64,000 bases of DNA from the NCBI GenBank assembly GCA_037443035.1, contig JBBIPC010000018.1:1-64000 (forward strand), in the 5' to 3' direction. The notes beneath the pieces are model-generated. The model was not told the DNA's origin. It did not search any database and worked only from the letters and a program-made list of their open reading frames with translations. The position numbers were made by a program, and so were the translations under genes. This document shows, in pieces, positions 8,124 through 27,886 of the stretch. The first letter of the stretch is position 1. Each line of letters starts with the position of its first letter. The stretch comes from Chthonomonadales bacterium (lineage in GTDB: Bacteria > Armatimonadota > Chthonomonadetes > Chthonomonadales > CAJBBX01).

Positions 8124-8142
8124 ATTCGGAGGAGTAAGCAAC

Positions 8143-9252: not shown

Positions 9253-9322
9253 CGCTCCTCATCGGACGGTCGGAGCCGAGCATCAATTCTAGTGCAGTAA
9301 AGCGCACTACTAGGAAGGGAAC

Positions 9323-10375: not shown

Positions 10376-10785
10376 AGTCAGGAGACGGCGTGTCGAACCC
10401 GCCCGTCGTCCGGGCAGGACACGGAACAGGTCGAAACGAGTCGTAACCGTACGGCACGCCAGCATCCTTGCGTCCATCGGCTGCAGCACTCTCCGCAGCG
10501 AAGGCGTGATGCGCCGGTCGGCACCAGAGAACCGGGCGACTCGGCTGGCCCGAAACTAAGCGCTGACCGGCCTCGCACTGCCGGGCGCCGTGTGACTGGC
10601 GCGAACGTTCCTAGCTTTCTCGCATGGCATGGACGCAGCATCCGCCGCGTTGGCATCACGCGCCTGCACGCCCCTGGGGTTTCCTCGTCCCCTCCATCTG
10701 GTGCTCGAGCATCTCCCGAGTCCATGTCCGGCGCCGCAGCTGCATCGGAATACACCACCAATGCACCCAAAGTTGCTGGAATATC

Positions 10786-10814
10786 TTGCATGCTCTGGCA
10801 GATTACGGTATAAT
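10786..10814 (+). promoter_or_regulatory. Sigma70-type promoter for the DeoR/pilin-like catabolic locus
   Basis: TTGCAT (10786-10791), 17-nt spacer, TATAAT (10809-10814) in an AT-rich patch. Confidence 0.8.
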
Positions 10815-10845
10815 ATGATAGATTGTGGTGATATACGATGATGTT
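10796..10845 (+). repeat. Five adjacent degenerate 10-bp direct repeats, putative DeoR operator
   Basis: TGGCAGATTA|CGGTATAATA|TGATAGATTG|TGGTGATATA|CGATGATGTT, consensus YGRYRnWnTn, overlapping the -10 box and likely start site. Confidence 0.5.
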
Positions 10846-10863
10846 GCCCATGAGGACGCTCAC

Positions 10864-11697
10864 ATGAGGCCATCAGAACGCATCCGCCCCGGCGAGGGTC
10901 TGCGCAGGCATCTCCTCGGCCCCGAACGTCGTCGGCGCATCGCCGCGTGGGTGGACCGACATGGTGCTGCAAACGTCGGGCAGTTGGCTGAGGCTCTGGG
11001 TGTCGGCGCCAACACAATCCGTCGGGATCTGGACGTACTCGCCCAGGAAGGCAAGCTCATTCGCTCCCATGGTGGTGCCGTCGCCTGCGAGAAGCCTCTG
11101 ACGCGACTCCCGTATGTGCAGGTTCGTCATGAACATGCCGAGGAGAAGAGCTGGATTGCCCGCGCGGCTCTCGAGCTCTTGCCGGAACATGGCTCTGTGT
11201 TCCTTGCAGATGGCACCACGGTTCAGGCGTTCGCTCTGGAAATCCCCCGTGAGACGCAGGTGCACGTGGTCACCAACTCGGTGCAGATAGCCGTCCGCCT
11301 GATCACCGAAACTGGCGCCACCGTGGAGCTCCTAGGCGGCAAGGTCCGCCCGGAACTCCTGGCAACCGACTGCAGCCTCGCCACCGAGGCCCTAGAGACC
11401 CTCTTCTGGGACATTGCATTCGTCGGAGCGGCGGCTTTGGACGTTACTTCTGGCATTACTGAACGAGATGCTGTCGAAGCCAGACGCCAGCGGAAGTTCA
11501 TGGAGCGCGCCACTCGTGTTGTGGCGCTGTGCGATTCCTCGAAGTTGGGTCGATGCTCTTATGCCCGTGTCGGTCCACTTACCCTACTGGACGTAGTTGT
11601 GACCGATTGGAAGGCCCCGAAAGAAGTCGTGCGTGCCTTTCACGAGGCCGGCGTCGAAGTGGTCCTCGCCGAGCCTCCAACAGCACCTGGAGAGTGA
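10864..11697 (+). CDS. DeoR/GlpR family transcriptional regulator
   Basis: HTH ERRRRI...LAEALGVGANTIRRDL..L..EG.LIRSHGGA, then EK..IAR.A, DGTT, VVTNS and CDSSKLG. RBS GAGGA before ATG 10864. Confidence 0.93.
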   Translation: MRPSERIRPGEGLRRHLLGPERRRRIAAWVDRHGAANVGQLAEALGVGANTIRRDLDVLAQEGKLIRSHGGAVACEKPLTRLPYVQVRHEHAEEKSWIARAALELLPEHGSVFLADGTTVQAFALEIPRETQVHVVTNSVQIAVRLITETGATVELLGGKVRPELLATDCSLATEALETLFWDIAFVGAAALDVTSGITERDAVEARRQRKFMERATRVVALCDSSKLGRCSYARVGPLTLLDVVVTDWKAPKEVVRAFHEAGVEVVLAEPPTAPGE

Positions 11698-11742
11698 TTC
11701 TGCCCACCAACACTTACCATGCGACACAGAAAGGAGTGTGCT

Positions 11743-12507
11743 ATGGCAAGGCGTCAACAGGGGTTTACACTCATCGAATTGCTCGTCGTCATTGCGATCA
11801 TCGCCATACTGGCGGCGATCCTCTTCCCGGTTTTCGCACGAGCGCGCGAGCAGGCGCGAACGGCCAGCTGCATTTCCAACATGAAGCAGATTGCTCTCGC
11901 TACGCTCATGTATGCCCAGGACTACGACGGGTACTTCCCGTGCCTCGATGTCAATCTTGCCTTCAGTACAGGGGACATCTACTCAGACATGTACAAGGGT
12001 GTGGTGGCGCCGCCGGATGCCGGTTGGCTCGACTACGTCCTGAAGTACGGCCTGGGCACTCAGTTGTACCCCTACATGAAGAACCGAGAACTCTGGCGGT
12101 GTGCCAGCGACAGCAACGCGCGGGGTACGCCGCAGATCGGCTACCGGAGCTCGAGCTACCTGTACCAGTTCATGGCCTCGAACGCTGGAGCAGCCCACAC
12201 CTGGTGGGGAGCGGCCTTCCCGTACCCGTGGCACGAAACCAGCACGAACTACCCATCCCAGTTCAAGATGTTCAGCGAAATGAACCCGTGGCACGACAAT
12301 CGATTCGTGCCCAATCCATGGGACTGGTATGCGTGCTGGCAGCCCGATACGAAGATGAACTTCGCGTTCTTCGACGGTCACGTGAAGACCTATCCGGTGG
12401 ACAGAGTTCTGTGGCGGTATCCAACAACCGATCCCTATCCGTGCTACGACTACATCTGGCCGAAGTACGGCTGGCCAAATCCACCTGAGTTTCACGACCT
12501 TCAGTAG
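11743..12507 (+). CDS. Prepilin-type N-terminal cleavage/methylation protein with DUF1559/H-X9-DG-like C-terminus
   Basis: [64 protein letters not shown] and [19 protein letters not shown]. Confidence 0.93.
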
Positions 12508-12618
12508 GCTGACACCATCTAGAAGCGAGGGCGGATGGGTCGTCCGCGAGCCGTACCAGCAAACAGGAGTGAACCCGAATGCCCTCCGTCCTCGCGCGTA
12601 TCTGGACCGGGAAGGGAG

Positions 12619-12873
12619 ATGATGACGGAATTGCGGAATAAGGAGATTCCTTTGCCAGTGGCCATTGGCATACTGGTGGTGGTCTTGCTCATCGTTGGAG
12701 TTATGTTGTGGAGCAGAACCGGTCCCGGGGCCCAAGCCGAACAGACAGAACGACGATTGCGAGCAGCGTTCGGAGTGAGTCGCCCAGGCCCAGGCGTGGC
12801 GCCTCAGCCAGGCGGACGTCCCGCGGGCCCAATGGCGCCAGCTCCAGCAGGCGGTGCGCCGATAGGACGCTAG
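12619..12873 (+). CDS. Small single-pass membrane protein with Pro/Gly-rich tail
   Basis: RBS GAAGGGAG. KEIPLPVAIGILVVVLLIVGVMLW is a TM segment. Directly follows the prepilin-like gene. Confidence 0.7.
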   Translation: MMTELRNKEIPLPVAIGILVVVLLIVGVMLWSRTGPGAQAEQTERRLRAAFGVSRPGPGVAPQPGGRPAGPMAPAPAGGAPIGR

Positions 12874-13025
12874 AGGGACCAGGACTGCGGCTACGGTCTG
12901 TCGGTCGAAGCGGACAGCGCTAGGGCCGCGGTCCACGGCGCGCTGGCCGATGATGAAGGAGGACATGCTGACACGCCGGCGGTCCTCAGGTGACACCGGC
13001 AGTGTCTGACACAGGGAGGAGCGCA

Positions 13026-14399
13026 TTGACAACTCAGACGATCCCGTGGTGGCGAATTGGAGTGGACTTGAGCAAAGTGCCGAATATGGTCACCGAAAGC
13101 CCAGGTCCCAAGTCGCGGGCTATGCACGCCCGTGCCGCGGATATCATCCGTGGTCTATCCTCGCAGGTCAAGCTCCATCCGGTGTGCTTCGCCGAAGGTT
13201 ACGGCGTGGTTCTCAAGGATGTAGACGGCAACACTTACCTCGACTTCTCGTCGGGCATCTATGTGACGACGCTCGGCCATTGCCATCCCAAGGTCTCTGA
13301 AGCCGTGGCGAAGGCGGCGCATACGCTCATGAACTGCCATGACTTCACCACTCCCCTCAAGACCGAACTCCTGGAGAAGCTGGTCGCGATCATGCCGCCA
13401 GGGCTGAACGGTGTCCAGCTCTACGACTCCGGTACCACTGCTGTCGAGGCGGCACTGCGAGCGGCTCGGGCGTACACGGGAAAACACGAGTTCCTGAGCT
13501 GCTACATGGACTTCCACGGCAAGACCGGCCACGCGGTCAGCCTCGCTAAGATGAATCCCACGAACGGTTCGGCACGAGCCCAGGGTTTTCATCTCGTGCC
13601 GCGACCGAATCCCTATCGTCCCATCTTCCGCAACGGTGACGGCACAATAGATACAGACGCGTACATCGCCTTCTACGAGGACTTCATAGACAACGTGACG
13701 ACAGGTCAACTCGCCGCCTTCGTTGTGGAGCCCATCCAGGGGTGGGCCGGCTCCGTCATGCCGCCCGATGACTTCTTGCCCAAGCTTCGGGCCCTGTGCG
13801 ACCGACGGGGAATGCTCCTCATCGCAGATGAAGTACTCACCTGTATGGGCAGAACTGGCAAGTGGCTAGCCATGGAACACTGGAACACTGTGGCGGACAT
13901 AACGACGCTGGGCAAGGGCTTCGGCAACGGTTTTCCTGTGACCGCCATGGTTGCCCAGGAGGACATCAAGCCCTCTTTCGACAAGATCTCCGCCTCCACT
14001 AGCTACGGCGGCAATCCCATGGCGTGCGCCGCCGCACTAGCATCCATCCGGGTGATCGAAGAGGAAGGGCTGCTCGAGAACGCGCAGCGTCTCGAGAGCT
14101 TCTTCCTAGGGCGAATGGAGCGCATGAAGGAGGCCCATCCCATCATCGGCGACGTACGAGCGAAAGGGTGTCTGCTGGGGATCGAGCTAGTCAAGGACCG
14201 CACAACCAAGGAACCCTTTGACGAGGCAGGGAAGGTGGTCTACCGAAAGGCATTCCAGAAGGGCCTTGCTTGGATACCCGCCGGCCACATTCTGCGCCTT
14301 TCGCCACCCATCATCATGGACGAGGAGATCGCAGCCAAGGGTATGGACATCGTGGACGAGGCTATCTTCGAGACGGAACGAGAACTGGGATACGCATGA
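13026..14399 (+). CDS. Class III PLP-dependent aminotransferase (GabT-like)
   Basis: DVDGNTYLDFSSG, LGHCHP, SGTTAVEAAL, FHGKT, EPIQG, IADEV...GRTG, LGKG (PLP lysine) and SYGGNP. TTG start after GGGAGGAG chosen; the ORF track starts at 12990. Confidence 0.92.
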   Translation: MTTQTIPWWRIGVDLSKVPNMVTESPGPKSRAMHARAADIIRGLSSQVKLHPVCFAEGYGVVLKDVDGNTYLDFSSGIYVTTLGHCHPKVSEAVAKAAHTLMNCHDFTTPLKTELLEKLVAIMPPGLNGVQLYDSGTTAVEAALRAARAYTGKHEFLSCYMDFHGKTGHAVSLAKMNPTNGSARAQGFHLVPRPNPYRPIFRNGDGTIDTDAYIAFYEDFIDNVTTGQLAAFVVEPIQGWAGSVMPPDDFLPKLRALCDRRGMLLIADEVLTCMGRTGKWLAMEHWNTVADITTLGKGFGNGFPVTAMVAQEDIKPSFDKISASTSYGGNPMACAAALASIRVIEEEGLLENAQRLESFFLGRMERMKEAHPIIGDVRAKGCLLGIELVKDRTTKEPFDEAGKVVYRKAFQKGLAWIPAGHILRLSPPIIMDEEIAAKGMDIVDEAIFETERELGYA

Positions 14400-14887
14400 C
14401 GACGACCGGAGCCGACTGGACAGCCAGCTTCGAGCTACAGGGCGCGGAACGTGAAGCCGCCATCCGCGAGGCCGAGATCATCATCGCCGAGTGGGGGCTG
14501 ACAATGCCTGCCGTAGAGCCACTTCCCCTCCACTTCGGCCTCGGTGAGTTTCGCCGGATCGGTGAGACGGAGTGGTGGATCGTGAACGACACTGAGAATA
14601 GGTACTGTGGCAAGTTCCTGTTTCTGTTCGAAGGCCAGCGGTGCCCAGAGCACTATCACCGCATGAAAGACGAGACGTTCTTCGTCGTCCGCGGCTCGCT
14701 ACAGATGGACGCTGGCGGTACCGCCGGCATTCTCCGTCAGGGAGATGTGTTCCGGGTCAGGCCAGGCACTCCGCATTCATTCATGGCTGTCGAAGGCCCG
14801 GCCCTAGTTCTCGAGGTGTCCTTGCCGTCGGTTTCAGGTGACAATGTGTTCTCCGACAAGCGCATCGGCAACGACGGCGTGATCTAG
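14396..14887 (+). CDS. D-lyxose/D-mannose isomerase family cupin
   Basis: FGLGEF..IGE.E.WIVN....YCGKFLFL..GQ.CPEHYH..KDETF and DNVF. ATGA overlap with the aminotransferase. Confidence 0.8.
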   Translation: MTTTGADWTASFELQGAEREAAIREAEIIIAEWGLTMPAVEPLPLHFGLGEFRRIGETEWWIVNDTENRYCGKFLFLFEGQRCPEHYHRMKDETFFVVRGSLQMDAGGTAGILRQGDVFRVRPGTPHSFMAVEGPALVLEVSLPSVSGDNVFSDKRIGNDGVI

Positions 14888-14890
14888 GAA

Positions 14891-16195
14891 ATGCCTGGCA
14901 CGTGCGTTCTTGCGTTGGATCTCGGGACAACTGCATTCAAGGCAGCACCGGCGAGCACGAGCGGCCTCTGCGGTCCCGTGAGTGTCGTACCGTATGCCGT
15001 GGAGTACGGCCCAGATGGAACGGTAGTCTGCGGGGCCGACCTCTACAAGCGCCTGGCATTCCGGGCCCTCAGAGCTGCTGCGCGGACTGCTCAGGAGCTG
15101 GGATACAGCGTAACGGCCATCGGGATTTCCTCCCAGGCACAGACGTTCGTACCCGTGGATGCTCGGAACCGCCCCACCTCCCACGCCGTCGTGTGGACTG
15201 ATACTTCCGCCGTCCAAGAGGCCGACAGCGCTGCGGCGTCTCTCCCGGATTTCGCCGAGACGTGCGGCTTCCTACGCCCAAGCCCGCTCCAGTTCCTGCC
15301 CAAAGTGGCGCGCTATCTCCGAAACTGTGGCCGCTGCCATCGCTTCCTGCTGCTGAACGAATGGATCGCTTACTGCCTGACAGGCCACGCGTTCGGCGAT
15401 GCGTGTCTTCAGGGAATGGGCGGTTTCTGGGACATCCGTCGAGGAACATGGAACGAGCGGGCGCTGGCTTGGGCTGGTATTGGATCGCAGTGTCTTGCAC
15501 CGGTCCAGGGCGCAGGTATTCCAGCCGGCCTCGGCCTGACCCAAGCCGCAGCCAAGACCCTCGGGTTGGCGCACGGTATTCCTGTCTACTCTTGCGGGAA
15601 TGACCAGTCATGTGCCGCTATCGGTGCCGGTGCGCTACATCCGGGCGATGTCTTTGCCAACATGGGCACGGCCATGGTGGTGTACGTTGTCAAGGACGAA
15701 CCGCCTGTACCGACGCGTCTGGATCAGATTGCCGGCGTGAGTCCGCTACCCAACAAGTGGTACTTGCTCGGTGTCGTGTCCGAGTGCGGGAACGTCGTCG
15801 AATGGCTTGTAAGGCTCCTCGACCGTCGTGGCGACATCGGGTTAGCTTTGGAGCGTGCCCTAGAGAAGCGCATCCGAACCGGGCTCTCAGCGTCCGTGCG
15901 CCTACACGGCGGCGGCATACTGGACCTCCGGCACTTGCAGGTGGGCATGGAAGCACCGGAAATCCTGCGGGCTGTGCTGGACTACTATTCCAGACGATTT
16001 GGTCAGCTGCTAAATGGCATCTGTCCTCAGCGCCCCCGACGGTTGATCGCCGGCGGCGGGTTGTCGCGCAGCCCGTCGTGGCTCCGGCATTTGACCCAGC
16101 AACATGGAGTCGAGATGATTCCGGCACCCATGGAACATCCGGGGCTAATGGGCATTGCGCGGGTGGTATCGCTCTTAGGCGAAGAAACCACCTAG
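14891..16195 (+). CDS. FGGY family carbohydrate kinase
   Basis: LALDLGTTAFKA, IGISSQAQT, VWTD, GNDQSCAAIGAG, MGTA and GGGLSRS. Confidence 0.85.
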   Translation: MPGTCVLALDLGTTAFKAAPASTSGLCGPVSVVPYAVEYGPDGTVVCGADLYKRLAFRALRAAARTAQELGYSVTAIGISSQAQTFVPVDARNRPTSHAVVWTDTSAVQEADSAAASLPDFAETCGFLRPSPLQFLPKVARYLRNCGRCHRFLLLNEWIAYCLTGHAFGDACLQGMGGFWDIRRGTWNERALAWAGIGSQCLAPVQGAGIPAGLGLTQAAAKTLGLAHGIPVYSCGNDQSCAAIGAGALHPGDVFANMGTAMVVYVVKDEPPVPTRLDQIAGVSPLPNKWYLLGVVSECGNVVEWLVRLLDRRGDIGLALERALEKRIRTGLSASVRLHGGGILDLRHLQVGMEAPEILRAVLDYYSRRFGQLLNGICPQRPRRLIAGGGLSRSPSWLRHLTQQHGVEMIPAPMEHPGLMGIARVVSLLGEETT

Positions 16196-16211
16196 CATCA
16201 GGGAGTGTGTC

Positions 16212-17021
16212 ATGGAGCATAGGTTCGAGTACCTCACGTCCGAGCAGCTCAAGTCCTTCATCCAACAGAAGGCGCTCCTGATTCTGGGTATCGGCACTGT
16301 CGAAGAGCATGGCGCGCATCTGCCGACAGGCACGGATTGGTTCATCACCCAGCGGTTCATGGACGATCTGTGTGCGTACCTGAAGTCCCATGCGAGTATT
16401 CCGTTCCTATCGCTACCGGCCATCTGGACGGGCTACTCCGCCGTGGAAATGCAGCGCTGGCCTGGAACCATCCGGATGAGCACCCGGACGGTCATGAACA
16501 TGATGCGGGAGATACTCGGATCCCTCTGCCAGATGGGCTTCGACAAGATCCTGATCCTGAACGGCCACGGTCATCACACCGAGCTCCTGAGAGTGGTGGC
16601 CAGAGAGATTGCTGATGACCACGGCGTCTACCCTGCAGTCTCCAACTTCCTCTACCTCGGAGCCGACGAGTACAACGCGGTTAGGAGAGGAGCCTCAGGA
16701 GGCAGCATCCATGGTGGGGAAGACGAGACCTCCGTCATGCTTTACTATGGCTATCCCGTGGACGTCTCGCGGTACACAGACGTTGACCACGTGACCTACC
16801 ACTCCGAGTTTGTTGCAGGTGACAACTTCATAGGTTCCACCAAGGTCTTCTGGTCCACGTGGTACTACCATCCGAGCAAGACGGGCCTCCTTGGTGATCC
16901 GACGCCTGCATCCGCCGAGACCGGTCGCATTCTCATGGAAGCCTGCGTACGCAAGCTCGCGCGATTTGCCGAGGAATACTGGAGCCACCGCCCGCAGCGC
17001 AACGACTCCCCCGTGCCATGA
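16212..17021 (+). CDS. Creatininase family amidohydrolase
   Basis: GTVEEHGAHLPTGTD, GYS, PGTI, NGHGHH, HGGEDETS and G.LGDP..ASAETG. Confidence 0.88.
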   Translation: MEHRFEYLTSEQLKSFIQQKALLILGIGTVEEHGAHLPTGTDWFITQRFMDDLCAYLKSHASIPFLSLPAIWTGYSAVEMQRWPGTIRMSTRTVMNMMREILGSLCQMGFDKILILNGHGHHTELLRVVAREIADDHGVYPAVSNFLYLGADEYNAVRRGASGGSIHGGEDETSVMLYYGYPVDVSRYTDVDHVTYHSEFVAGDNFIGSTKVFWSTWYYHPSKTGLLGDPTPASAETGRILMEACVRKLARFAEEYWSHRPQRNDSPVP

Positions 17022-18118
17022 CCGAACGCCAACGCCTGCAAGCCGTCTTGTCGGGCCGGATACCGGACTGCACACCGTGGTACGGTGACCTGAGCTGGTG
17101 GTATGCAGCCCATTCGGCTCGTGGTACGTTACCTGAAGCATACAGCGGCGACGAAGGCTATCTCCGCATGCATCGAGACGCAGGCGTCGGTATCTATCTT
17201 TTCGCGCCGATGCTGTGGACGGAGACCTACGATGACACGGTCGAGATGGTGGTGTCCCGCGAGGGCACGCAGACCGTCACCGTTCTTCGAACACCGGTGG
17301 GCCAGGTGCGCAGTGTTCTGGAAGACTTGCCCGAGTCGGGCACCTCCGCCTACGTGGAGCACTTCGTCAAGTGTCCCCAGGACCTGCGGGTCATGGAGTA
17401 CGCGTTCACCCATCGTCGCATGGAGCCGGCCTACGCTGCGTTCCAGGACTGCGATTGTCGGTGGGGAGACGCGGGAATGGCTGCCGTCCTGACCCCCGTG
17501 TGCACGTCGGCGCTCCAGACCCTGATGACTCGATGGGCCGGGGTGGAGACGACTATTGCTCTCTGGGCTGACGCTCGGCCAGACCTGGAAAGAACTATAG
17601 GCGTACTCCAGGAGAGCGACGATCCCATCTTCGATCTGATCTGTCACGGCCCGGGGCGGCTCGTGGTATTCCCCGAGAATCTCTCGGGCGAGATCACCAG
17701 CCGGTGGATGCTTCGGACTTATGCGTTGCCATACTGGCGCAGACGTCTGGGGCAACTCCATGATGCTGGCAAACTCGCTGGCATCCATAACGACGGCACC
17801 CTGCGTGGTTCCTTACCCATCCTGATGGAGGCCGGGTTCGACTTCATCGAATCTGTGACGCCAGCGCCGGTCGGTGACATGACGCTGGAAGAGATCCGCG
17901 ATGCCACGGCTGGCTGCGTGCTCATTTGGGGAGGTCTGCCCGGAGCGCTGTTCTCGCCCATCACTTCCCATACCATGTTCGATGAGTTCGTACGCCACGT
18001 GCTGAGCACTTTTCCCCTAGACTCGCGATTCGTGCTCCGTGTAGCTGACCAGGTGCCGCCGGATGCGCACTTCGAACGCGTTTGCAGAGTCAGGGAGATC
18101 CTGGATGGGTTGCGATGA
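17018..18118 (+). CDS. Uroporphyrinogen decarboxylase (UroD/MtaA-like) fold protein of unknown activity
   Basis: MTERQRL.A.L.G..PD..PW, TPVG, EHFVK...DL, ENLS, HNDG, PAPVGD, IWGG and ADQVP. ATGA overlap. Confidence 0.75.
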   Translation: MTERQRLQAVLSGRIPDCTPWYGDLSWWYAAHSARGTLPEAYSGDEGYLRMHRDAGVGIYLFAPMLWTETYDDTVEMVVSREGTQTVTVLRTPVGQVRSVLEDLPESGTSAYVEHFVKCPQDLRVMEYAFTHRRMEPAYAAFQDCDCRWGDAGMAAVLTPVCTSALQTLMTRWAGVETTIALWADARPDLERTIGVLQESDDPIFDLICHGPGRLVVFPENLSGEITSRWMLRTYALPYWRRRLGQLHDAGKLAGIHNDGTLRGSLPILMEAGFDFIESVTPAPVGDMTLEEIRDATAGCVLIWGGLPGALFSPITSHTMFDEFVRHVLSTFPLDSRFVLRVADQVPPDAHFERVCRVREILDGLR

Positions 18119-19593
18119 GACACTGCACCCCATCGTTACCATCCACCTTCCAAGCTATCGCGCTCGCAGCGCTTGCTGTTGCGGTGACCAGCATAGCAAG
18201 CCGAGATCGAGAGAGGCTGACGATGCCAGGCACCATGCACGGGATTCAGGACACGAGCAACGCCGCTCAGCAATCGAAACAGCTCCACCGCCTCGAGATC
18301 ACAGGTCTCTACGTGACGCCACCTGACTCAACCCATGGGCACTATCTGGACTTCTACCGTGCGTGCGGCTACAACTACCTAGAGTTCTGCGAGCTGGGCT
18401 GGTCCATACGCCCCGATCAGCACTTCTCGTACTATGCGGATCTCGCCTCTAGGATCGCCAGCGCCAAGAAGCGCGGCTTTGCCGTCTGGATTCTTCTGTT
18501 GGCAGGCATGCGGCAGTGGAAGGGGCCCGAGACCAAAGGAGATCCGGGGACCTTCAGCGCACTGGAGAAGGACGCGCTGGAGGAGCGGCTCTCATATATC
18601 CGCCGTGCAGTGCGCAGCCTTCCTCAGGCGGATGGATTCGTGTTCTTTGCTGGGGACCCAGGTGGCGATCGCCAGGGTAGGAGCACCATCCGTGATTGTA
18701 TCAGCTTTGCCCAACGTGTTCACGAGATCGTTCGGCAAGAAGCGCCTCACGCGGGTTTCGCCATCAACCTCTGGGCAGTAGCGGAGTGGGCCGGTTACCC
18801 GTCCGCCTTCTCCGCAGAATTCTGGCGCAAGCAACCGCAGCTCTCGAGGATCGTTGCCGAGGAGCCAGGTCTGCTGGGGCCAGGCTGTGGCGTGAGCTTC
18901 TCCTTGGATAGCTATTACCGGTCTCTTGCCCTCACGTGCTTTTCGGACTTGCGCGAGACCCCTCCGCTCTATCCTACGGCGTCGGATCTTGCGCATCTGC
19001 GCAAGCGCGGCGTGGCACCCGTCTTGGGTTGGCCGTACTTCCTCGTAGACGAATGCGACGACGGCTTCGTCACTCCGAACAACGTCGCCACGGGCGGACA
19101 GAGCCAATCCGAGACGCGTTACATCCACGACATCATCCAGCGCGGCAGAGACCTGGGCCTGGATGGCATGGTGGCGAACGCCGCTTATGTCGAGGCGGAG
19201 CAACTGAACATCTACGCCTTTGCGCAGATGTGCCACAATCCCAGGCTGACGCCTGCCGACGTGCTGGATCGCTACGCTCGCTTCGTCGCTACGTCCTCCA
19301 CAAGAAGGGCACTCAGTCGGGTTCTCCGCTTCATCGAGAACCACTCGAGCTGGCACAACAGCCTGCCACCTGCGTACCGGCTTCCTGACCTGGACTGCGG
19401 CGACCTGAACAGTGCGGAACAGGCACTGACGTTGCTCGATTCCGTGCGTCCACGCCCGAACGCGCCCGACCTTCTGCCGGAACCGCCAGCGACCTATCTT
19501 CAGCGGCTGAAGCGAAGATTGCAGGCCATTGCCGCTGGCAATGTTGGTGGACCTAACCCGCACTACGTTCCTCAGAGCCGACCTGCACGGTAG
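18115..19593 (+). CDS. Hypothetical exported protein, putative TIM-barrel glycoside hydrolase (DG-x6-DPGG paralog 1)
   Basis: N-terminal hydrophobic signal IALAALAVAVTSIA, CGYNYLEF and ADGFVFFAGDPGG. ATGA overlap, within the catabolic operon. Confidence 0.6.
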   Translation: MRHCTPSLPSTFQAIALAALAVAVTSIASRDRERLTMPGTMHGIQDTSNAAQQSKQLHRLEITGLYVTPPDSTHGHYLDFYRACGYNYLEFCELGWSIRPDQHFSYYADLASRIASAKKRGFAVWILLLAGMRQWKGPETKGDPGTFSALEKDALEERLSYIRRAVRSLPQADGFVFFAGDPGGDRQGRSTIRDCISFAQRVHEIVRQEAPHAGFAINLWAVAEWAGYPSAFSAEFWRKQPQLSRIVAEEPGLLGPGCGVSFSLDSYYRSLALTCFSDLRETPPLYPTASDLAHLRKRGVAPVLGWPYFLVDECDDGFVTPNNVATGGQSQSETRYIHDIIQRGRDLGLDGMVANAAYVEAEQLNIYAFAQMCHNPRLTPADVLDRYARFVATSSTRRALSRVLRFIENHSSWHNSLPPAYRLPDLDCGDLNSAEQALTLLDSVRPRPNAPDLLPEPPATYLQRLKRRLQAIAAGNVGGPNPHYVPQSRPAR

Positions 19594-19604
19594 CCACGCG
19601 TGCC

Positions 19605-21596
19605 ATGGTGTCCCCTTCCCCACCGTGCAAACCGCGAACACCTGGCCTCACGAGCGCTGGCGGCATCACAGTCCGAGCGCTGGTGCTGGGACTCGTTCTG
19701 ATGCTAGTCCATACCGTCTGGTTGATTTACGAAGAGCTCGCGCTGTCCCACATTGGTACTCCGAGCATCTTCACTCTTGTCCAGACCGTCATTGGCACGA
19801 TGTTCGCGCTCATGCTGCTGAATTCAGCTCTGCGGCGCTGGAAGCCGAAGTGGGTCTTGACACCGCCGGAGTTCATGGTCGTGTTCACCATGATGACGAT
19901 AGGAGCGGTCGTAACATCGGTCAAGCTGCTCCACTATCTGTTTCCGACGATCCTGTGGCCCTCGTACATGCCGATCCAGAGCGGCGGTCCCACCGCTGCC
20001 TCTAACCTAGCATCCTTCCTTAGGCCACGTGAACCCCGAGTCGTCGAGTGGTTCTTCGTCGGGACGCGGAGTTTCTGGGCTTTTTTTCGGCCCGAGATCC
20101 TAAGGGCGTGGCTGGTGCCGCTCGGCTTCTGGGCCGCGTTTTTCTTCTTGCTCCTGTGGACCATGCTCTGCCTTGCGTCCTTGGTCAGGAGACCCTGGGT
20201 GGACCAGGAGAAGGTCCCGTTCCCCGTCATCGAGCTACCCATCATGATGGCCAGAGACAACGACGCCAAACGGCTCTTCTCCAATCGGTTGCTGTTGCTG
20301 GGATTCGTGCCGACTGTGTTGTTACTCTCGGAGAACTACTTGGGGTCGCTCTTCCCTGGGTTTCCTACCATCAAACTGGCAGAACAGGACATCGGCACAC
20401 CGTATCTCACCTCGGCGCCCTGGAGCAGCGTCAACCCTTTGTTGACGGTCTGGTGGCCGTATGCTCTCGGCCTTTGCTACCTCATCCCGCTGGACGTCCT
20501 GTTCAGCTGCTGGTTCTTCTTCGTGGCTTTTCGCCTTGTTCTCGTGATAGCCACCGCGGTGGGTTGGCGTTCTCCCGGTAGTGCGTGGGATCTGTCTCAG
20601 TTCCCGTACGTCGGCAACGCCGCCGAGGGGGCGTGGCTCGGCATGTTCTTGGCGATCGTGTGGAACGCCCGGCGATTCGTGTCTGCGTTAGTTCGCGCCA
20701 TGCTTCGCCGACAGCCCGTACCAGGGGACGCAGAAGAGGCGATGCCGTACCGCCTGGCGTTGATCGGTACGGCGGCAGGCTACGGCGCGCTCGTATGGCT
20801 TGGCGTCCTGGCAGGCATGCGCCTGTCCGTCTCTCTGCTGGCATTCGCCCTGTTCTTCCTAGCGATAGTCGTGCTTACGCGGATGTACGCTCAGGTCGCC
20901 ATGCCAGTGTTCTGCATGGCGTTCTTCAGTTTCACGTCGTGGACAACTGCCCTGTTCGGTACGGCCAACCTGACGCGACCCGAGATGGCGAGCCTGACCA
21001 CGTTCTACTGGTTCGACAGGACGTACGAAACCATCCCCATGGGCCATCACATGGAGGCTTTCGTCTTTGCCGACCGGCTACGTCAGAGTAGACGAGCCAT
21101 GTTCTGGGTTGTCCTGGGAACTACCCTGGTTGCCGTCGTGATCGGCATGGTGACGCTCCTGCAGATCTTCTACGACCGCGGCGCTGCATCCGCACGAGTG
21201 TCCCAAGACTCGACATGGCTCGCGGGCTATGCGTGGTCGCGGTATGCCGAGTGGACAGCCAGCCCGAAATCCTTCGAGGCCGCTCCAATTCTCCGCGGAG
21301 CTGTGTCTGCGGCCATTGTCTTGCTGCTCAGCTACGCGCGAACCTTGTGGATCGGCTTTCCTCTTCACCCCATCGGTTACCTATTCACGGTCAGCTTCGC
21401 TCTCGAGTGGGGTATGTGGAACATCGTCTTCGTGACATGGCTTGTCAAGTGGCTCATCGTACGCTACGGAGGTCTGCGCGCCTACCGTAGCTCCGTCTCG
21501 TTCTTCCTCGGCCTTGCGTTGGGTGACGCCGTTGCCCACTTCGTCTGGGGGGTGGGGCTGAGCCTGGCTGGCGCCAGAGGCGCCTCGCCATACTGA
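19605..21596 (+). CDS. Large polytopic membrane protein, DUF6785/DUF6784-like, putative transporter
   Basis: 663 aa with many hydrophobic segments. Motifs TVRALVLG, W..PL..W, R.PWVDQEKVPFP..ELP, YLIPLDVLFS.WFF, FPLHPIGY and WLVK.LI.RYGG..Y.....FF.GL.LG, recalled from this family. Confidence 0.7.
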   Translation: MVSPSPPCKPRTPGLTSAGGITVRALVLGLVLMLVHTVWLIYEELALSHIGTPSIFTLVQTVIGTMFALMLLNSALRRWKPKWVLTPPEFMVVFTMMTIGAVVTSVKLLHYLFPTILWPSYMPIQSGGPTAASNLASFLRPREPRVVEWFFVGTRSFWAFFRPEILRAWLVPLGFWAAFFFLLLWTMLCLASLVRRPWVDQEKVPFPVIELPIMMARDNDAKRLFSNRLLLLGFVPTVLLLSENYLGSLFPGFPTIKLAEQDIGTPYLTSAPWSSVNPLLTVWWPYALGLCYLIPLDVLFSCWFFFVAFRLVLVIATAVGWRSPGSAWDLSQFPYVGNAAEGAWLGMFLAIVWNARRFVSALVRAMLRRQPVPGDAEEAMPYRLALIGTAAGYGALVWLGVLAGMRLSVSLLAFALFFLAIVVLTRMYAQVAMPVFCMAFFSFTSWTTALFGTANLTRPEMASLTTFYWFDRTYETIPMGHHMEAFVFADRLRQSRRAMFWVVLGTTLVAVVIGMVTLLQIFYDRGAASARVSQDSTWLAGYAWSRYAEWTASPKSFEAAPILRGAVSAAIVLLLSYARTLWIGFPLHPIGYLFTVSFALEWGMWNIVFVTWLVKWLIVRYGGLRAYRSSVSFFLGLALGDAVAHFVWGVGLSLAGARGASPY

Positions 21597-21609
21597 GAAG
21601 CATGACGCC

Positions 21610-22764
21610 ATGAATACTCGCCCCCAGCCTCGCGCACCGGATTGGGAGTTGCGCTTCGAAGATGTCTCGGATGAAGTGCTCTCGGTAATGCCCGGCGAAT
21701 CCACCAAGACAATCGTGGATCCTCTCATCGAGCGGGAGCTTCGCTGGGAACAGGACGTCTATTGTCCAGCCTTCACCATTCACGAGGATCGGATCGTTGG
21801 CCTGTACCGGGCATATGGTGAGGACGAACAGTGGCGACTGGGTTACGCGTGGAGCGAGGATGGTCTGACGTTCCAGCGGTCCGACAAGCCTGTACTCTAC
21901 GGTCGGCCGGAGCATGCTTTCCTAGCGTCCATCTGTGTCGACCCAACGGTGAGTGTATCGTTCGGCGATCCTCGAATCGTGGCTGGTGAGGACGGACGCT
22001 ACTACGCGTTGTTCAACGTTTTCCAGCACACGGTGGCGCAGCAGCAGGAGCTCTTCGTGGCCTCATCCGCCGATGCGCGAGAGTGGGTCATCCATGGTCG
22101 CGCGTTTGCCAAGACTGCCCCCACCGACTGGGAGGTCGTACCGGAGAAGAAGCCGTGGCGCTTCCCCCATCCCGCCATCGTCACCCGTCTCGTTCAGGGA
22201 CGCTTCGTAGCGGCGCGCATCCACGGTCGTTACTGGATGTACCTCAACTGCCTCTCCACCATCGGCCGACCGTGCCTCTGCGTGGCAACCTCGGATAATC
22301 TGAAGGACTGGGAGGTGCTACGGGATAGACGAGGAGGTCTTGTGCACCCCATGGCGCCACGTCCACATCGGTTCGACAGCTTCTACACAGATACAACAGC
22401 AGCCATCCTGCGTGAAGACGGCATCCTGTTGCTCTACAATGGCATCAATGACGACCCGACAAGGCTCGGTGATCCGGGCCTGATGCAATACGCTCACTAC
22501 CCAGCACAAGCACTGTTCGAGCGGGAAAACCCGCCAAAGCTGCTCCGCCGCAGCGAGCACCCGTACCGGATCCACGTAACACGCTTGGAGTGCCGTCCGC
22601 GCGTGTTCTGGCACGCGCCACTCTACGAGTCGTGGTGCCTCGTCCCGTGGAAAGATCACTTGCTACTCTACTGGAACCATGGATTTGGGCGGCGCGCAGT
22701 TGGTTTGTGGCGCAGTCCGCTACCCGCACGTCCGCACGCGCTCGACGTAGGAACGTGGACATGA
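21610..22764 (+). CDS. Five-bladed beta-propeller glycosidase/phosphorylase, GH130-like (divergent)
   Basis: PAF.......LYRA, RLGYA.SEDG..F.R...PVL, DPRI, YWMY, ATSDNL.DW, FDS, GILLLYNG and QALF. Confidence 0.65.
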   Translation: MNTRPQPRAPDWELRFEDVSDEVLSVMPGESTKTIVDPLIERELRWEQDVYCPAFTIHEDRIVGLYRAYGEDEQWRLGYAWSEDGLTFQRSDKPVLYGRPEHAFLASICVDPTVSVSFGDPRIVAGEDGRYYALFNVFQHTVAQQQELFVASSADAREWVIHGRAFAKTAPTDWEVVPEKKPWRFPHPAIVTRLVQGRFVAARIHGRYWMYLNCLSTIGRPCLCVATSDNLKDWEVLRDRRGGLVHPMAPRPHRFDSFYTDTTAAILREDGILLLYNGINDDPTRLGDPGLMQYAHYPAQALFERENPPKLLRRSEHPYRIHVTRLECRPRVFWHAPLYESWCLVPWKDHLLLYWNHGFGRRAVGLWRSPLPARPHALDVGTWT

Positions 22765-22865
22765 GCCTGCGACGGGAGGCAGGCGGCCACATACACCTAT
22801 CCTCCGACATGCGCGTGCTCCCTTCATGAATCGGAAGACGCATCCAGTACCCGGAGGACTAGAAC

Positions 22866-24347
22866 ATGATGCACCCTGACGGAAACGAGAACAAGATCGT
22901 CGGCATGTACGTGCACCAGCATTGGCCGTACAATCATCCCTACTGTGCTCGCACCTGGACACTCGAAGACTGGCACGGCTACGCCGACGGGCTCTGGAAG
23001 CTTGGCTACAACGCGATTCTCATTTGGCCAGTTCTCGAGACCATACCGGACCCTGCCACGCCCAGCGATGTGGCACATCTCGAGAAAACCGCCCGCGTCA
23101 TTGACATGCTCCACGATGAGTTTCGCATGCGCGTGTGGCTTGCCCTCTGTCCCAACGTGGTGCCCGACGATGAAGCTGCCGCCTGCTCCACGTACGAGCG
23201 CAGGCACTTCTTCTCCTGCGATAGACGGGCGAATCCAGCCGATCCCGCAGCAGTGGCAGACCTCTTGCGGCGGCGTCGCAGACTGCTCGGGTATCTTCGG
23301 GCAGCCGACGGCGTGAGCATCATAGACAGCGACCCAGGAGGCTATCCTGGCTCGACGAACCAGGAGTTCGTGGACCTGCTCATTGCGCACCGCGAGCTTC
23401 TGGACGACCTCAGGAGCGGTATCGAGCTGATCTACTGGATGCACGCAGGGTGGCTCGGTTACAACCGCTTCTACGAGACTGGCGTCCTCTCGTTCTCCAC
23501 GGACGAGGAGAATCTCGACTGTCTTCGCCGCCTGCTGGCCGCCAATCCGGAACCGTGGGGTCTGGCGAACGGCCTGCCGCTTGCCGAGCACTTGGGTATC
23601 GCTGACCGTGTCATCAGTTTCAACTATGGCCGCATCGAAGGCGAGCCGTCGTTCCCTCTCACGAACTTCGGTGGCTCTGCAGCCTACGACGGGGGAGCTG
23701 CGCCGGGGCCGCGCGGCGTTATGGGCAATGCCCAGACCCATTGCGTTCAGTTGCCCAATACCTTTGCCTTCGCTCGGGGTGCCCAGCACAGACCCGTCAC
23801 AGAAGCGGACTACGTTCAGTTCGCGGACGACCTCGTGCCTGGCCTTGGTACCACCATCGTCGAGGGCTGGAAAGCACTCGCATCTGAGGATAGCAGGACG
23901 ATGCTCGAGGCGACGCGAGCGCTCGAACGCGCAGCACAGCGCTGCCACAACCCCGGCCCTCTCGGCGGTCTACTGTTCGGCAATCCGGAGCGGTTCGTTA
24001 GCGATTTGTGCATGCAGCTTCGCATGCGCGCACCCTGGGTGGAAATGATGCACGCCGCAGGTACTCCGCCGAGAGGCACCATACGCGCCTTTGCGGAAGC
24101 GGCCTCGGCTTGGCAAGCGCGCCACGGCTACGAGAACGTTTGGTGGTGGCCGAGTCTGGACGAGACACTTCGGAGGATCGGTTCACCGGAAATCAATGCC
24201 GTTCTGGATACTCTCTACAACCCGTTCGGTCCCATGCCGCCAGGTCTTCGCCAGTCGCCATTCGAGTATGTTGCCTACAAGCTCAGAGAGGGTGAAAGCT
24301 TCACACCACGCCTGCTGCACGCTCTGCGTCGGACCTCGGATGCGTGA
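22866..24347 (+). CDS. Hypothetical cytoplasmic protein, putative TIM-barrel glycoside hydrolase (DG-x6-DPGG paralog 2)
   Basis: RBS GGAGGA. GMYVHQHW.YNHPY, LGYNAILIWP and ADGVSIIDSDPGG. No signal peptide. Confidence 0.6.
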   Translation: MMHPDGNENKIVGMYVHQHWPYNHPYCARTWTLEDWHGYADGLWKLGYNAILIWPVLETIPDPATPSDVAHLEKTARVIDMLHDEFRMRVWLALCPNVVPDDEAAACSTYERRHFFSCDRRANPADPAAVADLLRRRRRLLGYLRAADGVSIIDSDPGGYPGSTNQEFVDLLIAHRELLDDLRSGIELIYWMHAGWLGYNRFYETGVLSFSTDEENLDCLRRLLAANPEPWGLANGLPLAEHLGIADRVISFNYGRIEGEPSFPLTNFGGSAAYDGGAAPGPRGVMGNAQTHCVQLPNTFAFARGAQHRPVTEADYVQFADDLVPGLGTTIVEGWKALASEDSRTMLEATRALERAAQRCHNPGPLGGLLFGNPERFVSDLCMQLRMRAPWVEMMHAAGTPPRGTIRAFAEAASAWQARHGYENVWWWPSLDETLRRIGSPEINAVLDTLYNPFGPMPPGLRQSPFEYVAYKLREGESFTPRLLHALRRTSDA

Positions 24348-26337
24348 GGCTGCAGCTACAACTCCAACCATGGGCATCGCTAGTCCAGCCGACCGACGTA
24401 GGTACGCCGCGATGCTAGCCTGCGTCGTGGCGGCCGCATCCCTTTCGTCCTCCCAGCCGTCCGATGGAGCATCGACTATGAAGGAACGCTTTGTCCCGTT
24501 GCGCGGCATGACAGTTGTTGGTCCGGCTGTGCCCACCGATCCGGAGTGTCTTGCTGCAGCCCGTTTCGTCAGGGAGATCCGCCGCACTAGCGGCCTTACG
24601 CTGCCAGTCGTATGGGATGACGCGATGCCCACGGGGCCAGCAATCCTCGTGGGCAACCGGGCCACGCTAGGGCGCCTGCTGGCGGCGCATGCGTATCCGA
24701 GTCCCAAGGAACGCGATGGAGAGGATGTCGGCCGGCAGTCGTATGTTCTCGACGTCCTGTCGGGTCGCGGATCTCGGCGGCCGATCGTGCTTGCGCTTGG
24801 ACAGGGTCTGGAGCGTACAGCCCGCGGGCACTTGGGCACCAGTTATGCCCTCGGTGAGCTCCTCCGTCGCCTGGACGTGCGCAAGGGGGTATGGGGGTTT
24901 GCGCTTCCTGCTGGTCCTCTGGTGGCCTCACCGCACGTGCCGAACCGTACCCTCTACATCATGAACAGCAGTCTCAAGAATCCCGGACTCTCCTTGGAAT
25001 ACTTCAGCGATGAACAGCTGGAAGAATACGTTGACCGCCTGGTGGAAGCGCGTTATTCGCGGGTCTGTTTCTGGCAATGGTCCGAGTACTACCTCTACCC
25101 CGGCAATGTGCCGACCGTCCGCGCCGAGAGCGAGCGGACCCACCAGGTCATGCGCAAGTTCTTCGCCTACGCCCGACGTCGCGGTCTCGAGACCTATCAC
25201 ATGCTTACGCCATCACACGTAAAGGCCGAACTGCTCCCGAACGAAACAAGGTTCCGAGCGACTGGCTACTACGGTCCGTTCTCCATCTGCTGGAGCCAGC
25301 CAGAAGCGCGGGCGCTTGCACGAGAAGTCGCACGCACGGAGATGGAGTATTTCGGACCAATGGACGGATACATGGTCTGGTTCTACGATCCCGGAGGCTG
25401 TTTTTGCTCGGAATGCGCTGCCCATCAGTCCGAACGCATCTTCGATCAGTTCACGACCGTGGTGGACCTGGCGCGCACCATCAGCCCCAATGCACGGTTT
25501 CAGGCGGCTCTCTGGCCCACGTGGGCTTTCGCACGCCAGACCGAAGGTATCGGCCATCCTGGGCGCGGCTATACAGAGACAGAGGTGCGCGATATGGTCC
25601 GGGACTTCCTCAGGCGGTGCCTGGAGCGTTTCGGACGGCGCAATTTGACCATCATTGACAGTTGCGAAGGAGACGAAACCAACATCTACAATGGCAATGT
25701 GGACCCGGCCCAATTCCGCCGCTGCGCGTTCATGTACTCGGTGCTCGGCATGACCAGTGAGCAAGCGTACCCGTTTCCTCACTTTCGGCTGAAGTATCTC
25801 GCCGACCAAATGAGCAAGGCTCGCGACCGTGGCTTAGAAGAGGCCATGCTATTCTTGCAGTACTCCGCCACGAACTTTCCATTGGTCTACACATTCGCGG
25901 ATACCCTGTACGAAGGCGGTCCGGACTGGACAACGACCGCAGACCGTCTTGCTGCTACCTACTCCAAGGGTGATGCCCGCTCAACGTTCAGGCAGTTTCT
26001 GCAAGCCGAGGAAGATCTCTCCACAGCTCAGTCAACGCAGTCCATGGTTTCGGCTGTCGAAAGGCTCGAGCGATCTGCCACGAAACTAGTTACTTCCGAT
26101 GGCTTCGTGGGCGACCGTGAATGGCTCAGGGGATACGTCCTCGCTCAGCGCTACTACCTACAGATGGCGATGGCCACGAGCGACGCCGATCTTGCTGATA
26201 CCCTTGCCCGCTTCAAGCACGCTCTCTCTTCGATACCTATGTACCGGGACTATGCACAGCGAACTCTGGACGCTTCACTCGTCCGAACTCACCTGAAGGC
26301 TCTCTGGAATACAGCATTGGCCCACGGGAAGCCGTGA
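24340..26337 (+). CDS. Hypothetical exported protein, putative glycoside hydrolase with GH20/GH67-like N-terminal domain (DG-x6-DPGG paralog 3)
   Basis: Signal-like RRRYAAMLACVVAAASLS. N-domain AA..F..EI....GL.LP...ILVG...QSYVL...G..YA.GELLR and P....R. Core MDGYMVWFYDPGGCFCSEC. Start uncertain (24340 or 24370). Confidence 0.6.
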   Translation: MREAAATTPTMGIASPADRRRYAAMLACVVAAASLSSSQPSDGASTMKERFVPLRGMTVVGPAVPTDPECLAAARFVREIRRTSGLTLPVVWDDAMPTGPAILVGNRATLGRLLAAHAYPSPKERDGEDVGRQSYVLDVLSGRGSRRPIVLALGQGLERTARGHLGTSYALGELLRRLDVRKGVWGFALPAGPLVASPHVPNRTLYIMNSSLKNPGLSLEYFSDEQLEEYVDRLVEARYSRVCFWQWSEYYLYPGNVPTVRAESERTHQVMRKFFAYARRRGLETYHMLTPSHVKAELLPNETRFRATGYYGPFSICWSQPEARALAREVARTEMEYFGPMDGYMVWFYDPGGCFCSECAAHQSERIFDQFTTVVDLARTISPNARFQAALWPTWAFARQTEGIGHPGRGYTETEVRDMVRDFLRRCLERFGRRNLTIIDSCEGDETNIYNGNVDPAQFRRCAFMYSVLGMTSEQAYPFPHFRLKYLADQMSKARDRGLEEAMLFLQYSATNFPLVYTFADTLYEGGPDWTTTADRLAATYSKGDARSTFRQFLQAEEDLSTAQSTQSMVSAVERLERSATKLVTSDGFVGDREWLRGYVLAQRYYLQMAMATSDADLADTLARFKHALSSIPMYRDYAQRTLDASLVRTHLKALWNTALAHGKP

Positions 26338-27684: not shown

Positions 27685-27886
27685 GTCTAGTCCCGGCAGG
27701 ATCGCGCAGTGTTCCTGGAGAACCCTCCACCAGAATGGACCGGACCCGGGCTCCGCAGTATCATCGAGATTACCTTAGATCGTAGCGGTCTCGGCATGCC
27801 CGCGCGGGGCACGTGCTCTGTTCCATATCCCGCGGCCGAGCCAGAACCCGTAACGCGAATGCCGCCATCGAATGGAGAAGGTTGAC

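Follow-up and report, generated by a model that had tools for sequence, protein, structure and literature searches.

How the glycan degraders of Planctomycetota, related phyla and Armatimonadota take up polymers without SusC and SusD is a question raised by an operon of Chthonomonadales bacterium (Armatimonadota) in which a pilin-like gene stands directly behind a sugar-type regulator. We analysed the first 64 kb of contig JBBIPC010000018.1 (C18; this stretch is called the window here), which belongs to a 3.76-Mb genome rated 100% complete. The operon consists of thirteen co-oriented genes on the plus strand (10864-26337), headed by a DeoR-type gene and by a prepilin-like gene of DUF1559. In Armatimonadota, as in Planctomycetota and its related phyla, few orphan families are larger than this one. 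What does a pilin do at the head of a catabolic operon? We found that it is one copy of a regulator-pilin cassette that occurs throughout the phylum, and that the gene content supports a catabolic route for an amine-bearing sugar. The operon is likely repressed by its DeoR protein and likely serves to harvest a nitrogen-containing glycoside.

A regulator-pilin cassette and its small partner

In the genome itself, 14 matches to PF13377, the LacI sensor domain, exceed the cut-off, and the ten best of these lie directly upstream of a pilin, with at most one small open reading frame (ORF) between the two genes. Three of the remaining four coincide with homologues of ribose-type solute-binding proteins (SBPs) in tblastn. 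We then took 55 distinct LacI-type loci from 33 other genomes of the phylum, the best-scoring out of several hundred matches. A pilin on the same strand, starting at most 500 nt downstream, was present at 36 of these loci (22 of the 33 genomes), and a further three had a pilin divergently upstream. The same downstream test on TetR loci of the phylum, which show only about 1 kb of downstream DNA, gave 0 of 30. The resulting Fisher p=2.5e-10 is overstated because kin are not independent and the loci were chosen by score. At LacI-type loci without a pilin the downstream genes were mostly CAZyme-like (resembling carbohydrate-active enzymes) or catabolic (16 ORFs at 15 of 19 loci), and no SBP family matched any of these 16 ORFs. 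These results support a non-random tie between DUF1559 pilins and sugar regulators. The open literature, with subscription papers and supplements not covered, gave no description of a regulator-pilin-partner cassette, and the accessible part of PMC11071339 does not mention one. Two tandem arrays, each of three pilins interleaved with small single-helix ORFs, occur at G000:C15:29421-33562 and C4:137422-140361. At another locus, L239 (G020:C49:24000-40000), the gene right after a creatininase orthologue (72%) is of LacI type; a pilin (47%), a partner and two 700-aa proteins without a Pfam match come next.

The copy in the window comprises the following features.

10750-10830, plus strand: short CACC/GGTG repeats around the promoter, a likely DeoR operator suggested by repeat enrichment
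10786-10814, plus strand: putative sigma-70-type promoter, TTGCAT-N17-TATAAT, called from the sequence, with a comparable box in orthologous upstream regions
10864-11697, plus strand: DeoR/GlpR-family repressor (PF00455 E 8e-39, PF08220 E 2e-15)
11743-12507, plus strand: DUF1559 prepilin-like protein (PF07963 and PF07596 over cut-off; class III signal cleaved between G7 and F8, E at +5; H-X26-DGH)
12619-12873, plus strand: small single-pass partner of 84 aa (hydrophobic helix, short amphipathic helix, Pro/Gly tail), a predicted pilin binder

The pilin scores 41.4 bits against PF07596 (cut-off 21.2) and 39.7 bits against PF07963 (cut-off 23.3), as DUF1559 prepilins do. An earlier note on this DNA had called it an H-X9-DG prepilin; the DUF1559 identity and the class III signal peptide hold, and the motif has to be amended. 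It is H184-X26-DG, with H184 and D211 26 residues apart, and the pilin has no match at E<=0.01 to TIGR04294, the H-X9-DG model, whereas a paralogue at 27872 matches. With 21% W/Y/F it is the most aromatic among 44 paralogues. Matches of its profile in the PDB are confined to the alpha-1 helix of solved pilins. Neither the pilin nor any other product of the locus matched a family of ATP-binding cassette (ABC) SBPs or SusD proteins in sequence, and no ABC or SusC match that could be their partner was found there; an Atlas search with the pilin head returned unnamed clusters and one cluster with 12% SBP_bac_10. The genome encodes 45 strong DUF1559-type prepilins (49 at a looser score), one match to prepilin peptidase and six to secretins; three secretin matches are consecutive on one small contig (G000:C34:7281-11198).

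Comparable numbers of DUF1559-type proteins are given, in the accessible parts of the respective papers, for Rhodopirellula (74; PMC2754498), Planctopirus (68; PMC10632474) and Tuwongella (91; PMC8567305). There the family is described as the largest paralogue group of Planctopirus, of unknown function (PMC10632474). In Tuwongella its members are dispersed in the genome, are often flanked by genes for signal-peptide proteins and appear in detergent-soluble fractions (PMC8567305); elsewhere the family is called a solute-binding family, with a citation of Studholme 2004 (PMC2754498). Likewise in the parts accessible, the 79 PulG-like genes of Fimbriimonas are interpreted as attachment pili (PMC4072686), and a type IV-like pilus locus takes part in glycan use in Akkermansiaceae (PMC13174399). 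The operon pilin shares with the DUF1559/TIGR04294 family the N_methyl plus PF07596 architecture and the many paralogues, but what is accessible of the family literature mentions neither a link with sugar regulators nor a single-pass protein bound to the pilin. Akkermansia MUL2, compared by its description in the accessible part of PMC13174399, likewise implicates a type IV pilin-like protein in glycan use by a diderm outside Bacteroidota; it has, however, four genes, among them those for a PilM protein and an archaeal-type pilin, and does not consist of dozens of regulator-linked DUF1559 cassettes.

The small gene after the pilin had been listed in the earlier note, and it is a real gene; what the note missed is its role as a recurrent, predicted pilin-binding partner. 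ORFs of 40-130 aa with an N-terminal hydrophobic helix flank 27 of the 45 pilins of the genome, as against 31 of 300 random genes. Those beside orthologous pilins are 43-60% identical to ours, and those beside other pilins 20-36%. A complex predicted for pilin residues 8-254 and partner residues 1-58 reached an ipSAE of 0.64 (best control 0.00). In our calibration, whose counts are rough because own alignments were used, 116 of 157 solved pairs scored this high, as did 2 of 215 mismatched ones. Separate runs agreed in at least 82% of contacts, with a partner pLDDT of 70-71. In the model the pilin alpha-1 helix packs against the membrane helix of the partner, a packing that could echo solved pilin complexes, and residues 80-89, 121-125, 135, 180-181, 186, 188 and 194-197 of the pilin head grip the second helix of the partner (L47, F51). 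Pilin residues 186-197 lie within the insertion that stretches H-X9-DG to H-X26-DG. The partner is thus predicted to bind the pilin.

The thirteen co-oriented genes and the tight spacing described in the earlier note are both borne out. Intergenic distances are, in order, 45, 111, 152, -4, 3, 16, -4, -4, 11, 13, 101 and -8 nt, which include three ATGA overlaps and three large gaps (111, 152 and 101 nt); the 152-nt gap assumes that the aminotransferase starts at TTG 13026, behind GGGAGGAG. Judged by spacing alone, the genes are probably co-transcribed. A terminator scan gave 11 sites against 10.3 expected, none of them between cluster genes. The promoter had been described as a consensus one: its -35 element matches the consensus at only three of six positions and a consensus scan does not list it, but the call stands because a TTG..-17-TA..T box is found at the same place in six of seven orthologous upstream regions (window included). 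In seven orthologous 170-nt upstream regions, picked by eye, CACC occurs 23 times, mostly about 10 nt apart, whereas shuffled sequences contain 5.5 +/- 2.2 copies and 0 of 2000 shuffles reach 23. This enrichment suggests that the repeats are likely the DeoR operator. A repeat search upstream of the pilin gave two-copy families only, at chance level. Intergenic folding gave z-scores of -1.1, -0.3 and -2.1 for the gaps in the window and of -1.0 to -3.8 for those in four relatives; after this test a conserved RNA element in the gaps is not claimed.

Catabolic enzymes, glycosidase-like proteins and the membrane protein

The remaining ten genes of the operon are the following.

13026-14399, plus strand: class III aminotransferase-like enzyme dependent on pyridoxal phosphate (PLP), the conserved core gene (PF00202 E 7e-97, 325 bits)
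14396-14887, plus strand: cupin resembling D-lyxose isomerase (PF07883 E 9e-12, PF07385 E 6e-8)
14891-16195, plus strand: FGGY-family sugar kinase (PF00370 E 6e-24)
16212-17021, plus strand: creatininase-family metal amidohydrolase (PF02633 E 3e-50)
17018-18118, plus strand: protein of 366 aa with a uroporphyrinogen decarboxylase (URO-D)/methyltransferase fold (PF01208 via homologues)
18115-19593, plus strand: TIM-barrel glycosidase-like protein A with a signal-peptide-like N-terminus (Atlas leads and homology to B; no Pfam match)
19605-21596, plus strand: DUF6785+DUF6784 membrane protein of 663 aa, modelled with an OPT/YSL transporter fold (Pfam E 3e-103 and 1e-22)
21610-22764, plus strand: GH130-like beta-propeller without a signal peptide (NF058598 E 3e-46, below cut-off)
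22866-24347, plus strand: TIM-barrel glycosidase-like protein B (profile matches to glycoside hydrolase (GH) N-domains)
24340-26337, plus strand: glycosidase-like protein C with a hydrophobic N-terminus and an uncertain start codon (no Pfam match; DG..DPGG motif)

No product of the thirteen genes matched an ABC, major facilitator superfamily (MFS), phosphotransferase system (PTS), SusC or SusD family in Pfam or NCBIfam, in agreement with the earlier note. The locus is like SusC/SusD polysaccharide utilization loci and ABC-SBP operons in its regulator, putative capture protein, likely exported glycosidase-like proteins, likely importer and enzymes; unlike them it has no SusC, SusD, SBP or ABC genes.

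Active-site residues of the enzymes are well kept. In the aminotransferase, the PLP lysine K309, D280 and EPxQGW are invariant in 80 of 80 orthologues, as are H117, D118, W252, L283, S338 and Y339, and K178 is kept in 79. Its closest solved relatives are archaeal aminotransferases and racemases, and none of its best 25 NCBIfam matches is a named family at cut-off. Residues H86, H88, E93 and E140 of the cupin are invariant in 24 of 24 orthologues, and the metal ligands E32, H36, D42, H119 and E172 of the creatininase-like enzyme in 20 of 20. Against the IolN model NF041098 the latter enzyme scores 54.9 bits, where the cut-off is 245. The 366-aa protein itself has no match, and eight of ten aligned homologues match PF01208 (URO-D; best E 2e-8). 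An oxidoreductase of the Gfo/Idh/MocA family, encoded elsewhere in the genome (G000:C5:63103-64188), is an orthologue (70%) of the in-operon enzyme of relatives (L045); within G000:C5:63055-66565 it lies between a sulfatase-like gene and a URO-D-like gene, the label being given by eye.

Together, family matches, conserved residues and the survey of the aminotransferase core described below support the catabolism of a nitrogen-containing sugar that the earlier note had proposed. The simplest route, which we consider probable, would start from an N-acyl amino sugar that is out of reach of NagA/NagB: once its glycoside is cleaved, the sugar would be deacylated at the nitrogen, transaminated, reduced, isomerised and phosphorylated. 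Arabinose/fucose, NagA/NagB, azasugar GabT1 and IolN routes share with the locus the classes of deacylase-like hydrolase, ketol isomerase, FGGY kinase and class III enzyme. Unlike in NagA/NagB amino-sugar catabolism, the locus contains no NagA or NagB, and among the named NCBIfam enzyme models listed none reached its cut-off for a locus enzyme. To our knowledge, this enzyme combination matches no known pathway. A precedent for class III enzymes acting on sugars is azasugar synthesis, in which they aminate fructose-6-phosphate, as stated in the accessible part of PMC8382821.

Proteins A, B and C have the DG..DPGG motif in common. A and B are homologous (hhalign 99.4%, E 3e-21); pairwise BLAST among the three was not significant. 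Atlas leads for A are clusters with GH67-middle (57% of members) and GHL6 (12%). The profile of B found 459 representatives at E<=0.001, nine of 61 aligned members carry a GH67 N-terminal domain, and it matches N-domains of GH67, GH115, GH84 and GH20 structures. The leads of A and B to GH67/GH20-fold glycosidases consist of N-domain profile matches and language-model leads. Orthologues of C in relatives are 57-61% identical. The propeller, which had been left unclassified together with the membrane protein, has family matches as that protein does: it resembles solved GH130-like chains (PDB 3r67 E 2e-37, 5a7v E 1e-27), with bit scores of 19.3 against a cut-off of 26 for PF04041 and of 158 against 550 for the GH130 NCBIfam model. 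A hydrophobic N-terminus is seen in A and in C, but not in B or the propeller.

The membrane protein matches DUF6785 and DUF6784 and no other Pfam model at E<=0.05, the Pfam OPT model included, and its 78-sequence profile gave 0 matches among PDB sequences. A model built from an alignment of 78 sequences (P0001 and the partial P0047 excluded) has a pLDDT of 92.8 and a pTM of 0.92, where a single-sequence model was unusable (pLDDT 43.6). Foldseek returned two PDB matches at E<=0.001, both of barley YS1 (E 2e-8, TM 0.61-0.69). Realignment (VIA) to barley YS1 (7wst/7wsr) gave Z 24.3 with a root-mean-square deviation of 3.9-4.1 over 541-550 residues at 11-14% identity; the next entry had Z 5.4. 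Because the model has an OPT/YSL fold, and given its context, the protein is likely an importer, as the earlier note had suggested. It would share the whole-chain fold of barley Yellow Stripe 1, but unlike the metal-chelate or peptide cargo of OPT/YSL carriers, its context suggests a sugar. The genome has 20 DUF6785 matches, and the family is present in 35 of 40 relatives. The open literature, subscription papers and supplements not covered, gave no paper on DUF6785/DUF6784 and no description of them as an OPT-fold carrier.

Conservation and mosaicism

Sixty-seven relatives in the order were compared. An aminotransferase orthologue (80-86%) is present in 16 of them and an orthologue of the pilin head (55-79%) in five, all of which are among the 16 (hypergeometric p=4.5e-4; kin are not independent). 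Four of the five (loci fetched twice being counted once) keep the order DeoR-pilin-partner-aminotransferase, which is the conserved linkage in relatives that the earlier note had expected, and in these four the cupin, kinase, amidohydrolase, hydrolases and DUF6785 follow wherever the contig reaches. In the fifth, G012, DeoR and the aminotransferase lie on another contig, and pilin and partner lie with a PhyH gene, an A-family protein, the GH130-like gene, B and C. Three relatives (G015, G020 and G022) have aminotransferase, DUF6785 and B together without a pilin orthologue; in two more (G005 and G018) the DUF6785 orthologue stands by itself. The pilin goes with the likely exported hydrolases: its place is in a module with these and the regulator, and it is no fixed partner of the likely importer.

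The core survey covered the best 80 of 560 confirmed aminotransferase loci (60-85% identity), many of which are incomplete. They span Armatimonadota, Chloroflexota, Planctomycetota, Verrucomicrobiota, Lentisphaerae, Kiritimatiellae and Acidobacteriota. DeoR-like genes are present at 48 of them (orthologues of our DeoR, at 65-77% identity, at six), Gfo/Idh/MocA and FGGY genes at 43 each, cupins at 24 and creatininase-like genes at 20. Core loci of relatives also encode arabinose-isomerase-like proteins, DeoC/LacD aldolases, amidohydrolases, PfkB and UxuA-like enzymes. A transporter scan of 52 of 68 hydrophobic ORFs, the others being known DUF6785 copies or ORFs judged unrelated, found within 10 kb MFS proteins at 15 loci, ABC permeases at three, APC at three, SSF at two and EamA at two. 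That other core loci have such ordinary transporters agrees with DUF6785 taking the place of the transporter here. Two relatives carry a ribose-type ABC permease in the operon beside a different pilin, with an SBP confirmed in one of them. At L045 an SBP and a permease lie inside the operon, and a different pilin (39%) lies on the opposite strand. From the core loci without a pilin and from the SBP of L045 it follows that the pathway does not need the pilin, which travels with regulator and hydrolases.

Three further observations were made at core loci. A Lentisphaerae aminotransferase locus carries a DUF6785+DUF6784 gene (L102:1199-3283), and L101, of the same group, carries a DUF1559-type pilin. 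At L082:13387-14346 and 11 other loci, mostly verrucomicrobial, a protein of about 320 aa without a Pfam match at 1e-5 lies beside an amidohydrolase.

The role of the pilin and its alternatives

We propose, at about even confidence, that a DeoR-derepressed pilin-partner dimer captures the glycan in the envelope, and that the product is taken in by the OPT-fold carrier, which has no need of the pilin. A phosphorylated intermediate would lift DeoR off the CACC repeats. The prepilin peptidase would then cut the pilin, which is predicted to pair with its single-helix partner and may grip the glycan at or across the outer membrane by means of type IV pilus/secretin machinery. Proteins A and C would trim the glycan in the periplasm, and DUF6785, to judge from its modelled fold, would import the small product. 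Protein B and the GH130-like enzyme may release the monomer, from which the creatininase-like enzyme would take off the N-acyl group and the class III enzyme the amine. The Gfo/Idh/MocA oxidoreductase, cupin isomerase and FGGY kinase would presumably yield a ketose phosphate.

A wider version of this proposal is tentative, and we hold it to be possible rather than probable: that Armatimonadota lacking TonB receptors take up glycans through a library of sugar-induced, substrate-specific DUF1559 pilin/partner heterodimers, which would be loaded into a retractile type IV pilus or pseudopilus and would draw the bound glycan through secretins towards periplasmic hydrolases and OPT-fold importers. 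The TonB receptor family PF00593 has 0 matches in this genome and is present in three of 14 control genomes. If this is true, pilins would join SusC/D and ABC-SBP as a third way of capturing glycans, and in this operon capture would be coupled to a so far undescribed transaminase route that breaks down an N-acyl amino sugar. The locus supplies material for tests, namely a pilin clade with orthologues confined to one pathway and a predicted partner and interface. Its likely operator and DeoR could reveal the inducer, a bacterial OPT-fold transporter gains a candidate cargo, and the locus points to a catabolic route that is spread over several phyla.

Several observations speak against glycan capture by the pilin as part of this pathway. 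Eleven of the 16 relatives with the aminotransferase have no pilin orthologue. Protein A orthologues (at least 57% identity) occur in 13 of the 67 relatives, of which four have a pilin orthologue and four lack the aminotransferase; the locus is therefore a mosaic. Searches of the same-genus relative G001 (96% complete) with the aminotransferase, the pilin head and protein A all found nothing. A DUF1559-type pilin lies within the fetched DNA, often incomplete, at only seven of the 80 aminotransferase loci, and most of the 45 pilins of the genome have no adjoining sugar regulator. Finally, the genome has 10 SBP_bac_1 and 20 MFS matches and is therefore not short of ordinary uptake systems.

Could the pilin pair leave the sugar of this operon uncaptured, and be a regulated module of minor pilins or pseudopilins by which the cell attaches to glycan-rich particles, or exports and positions the co-encoded hydrolases? 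The intact class III signal peptide and the alpha-1 helix similar to solved pilins would fit such a module, as would the six secretin matches of the genome and a PilC gene in the window. So would the pilin and partner of G012, which stay with hydrolase genes apart from the aminotransferase core, and the LacI genes without a pilin, which mostly precede CAZyme-like or catabolic genes. MUL2 pili of Akkermansiaceae are described as attachment structures in the accessible part of PMC13174399. However, orthologous heads are 55-79% identical and occur only in genomes with the pathway, which fits a specific ligand, and a generic export role would not require 45 divergent heads. We regard this explanation as rather unlikely.

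The chemistry could also differ from the transaminase route. An aminocyclitol may be opened by an IolN-like C-C hydrolase, or the kinase and a class III phospho-lyase may form a pair that eliminates phosphate and ammonia. The creatininase-like enzyme does match IolN, weakly (E 7e-15), but far below the cut-off. The class III enzyme has W252, K178 and DEVLT, of which W252 presumably replaces the glutamate, and K178 the arginine, of transaminases that use 2-oxoglutarate; PbfA ammonia-lyase and racemases match it at similar scores. By contrast, other phyla pair the enzyme with arabinose-isomerase-like proteins, DeoC/LacD, amidohydrolases and Gfo, as would be expected if an open-chain sugar is deacylated, transaminated and isomerised. 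Such alternative chemistry is in our judgement unlikely, and the transaminase route remains the one that we prefer.

In the earlier note the pilin was an analogue of SBP or SusD that serves DUF6785. In its strict form, a membrane-anchored solute-binding protein would hand the substrate directly to this carrier. The pilin gene does come first after the regulator, a place often taken by SBP genes, and the ORFs downstream of LacI genes without a pilin are, as described above, free of SBP matches. DUF6785 follows two more LacI-pilin-partner cassettes (G000:C12:48765-53744 and C24:2656-6802), and the pilin family was once named SBP_bac_10, according to the accessible part of PMC2754498. Against this, co-location of pilins and DUF6785 across the genome was rejected: 4, 6 and 7 of the 20 DUF6785 genes lie within 5, 10 and 15 kb of a pilin (p=0.21, 0.22 and 0.33), with 4.2 expected at 10 kb. 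The five relatives with a DUF6785 orthologue in which no pilin orthologue was found (G005, G015, G018, G020 and G022), the ABC permeases or SBP found beside pilins (a true SBP coexisting with one at L045) and the relocation in G012 all speak against it as well. We know of no characterised OPT/YSL carrier that works with a binding protein. Direct handover is accordingly quite improbable, and the claim of the earlier note is not supported.

That the pilin cassette is a mere passenger, one of 45 paralogues landed behind the regulator with no role in the pathway, is suggested by the many paralogues among housekeeping genes and by a pathway present without the pilin in most carriers, but it is very improbable given the regulator adjacency (36 of 55 vs 0 of 30), the pilin orthologue found only in pathway-positive genomes and its keeping the partner after relocation.

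Several genes surround the operon in the window. Just upstream on the same strand (5784-10375) lie genes for a GH5/GH39-like protein, a DUF2961 protein and a Gfo/Idh/MocA enzyme, orthologues of which were not seen beside the DeoR operon in the relatives fetched. The 3' neighbour, on the minus strand, is a nickel-pincer isomerase gene (26389-27684; NF052515 over cut-off). Divergent from it stands a second DUF1559 prepilin with a true H-X9-DG, followed by an ORF of about 60 aa with a lipoprotein-like signal (together 27872-28947). Farther downstream are a stand-alone PilC/GspF gene (31533-32564) and a GH127-like gene (40716-43019).

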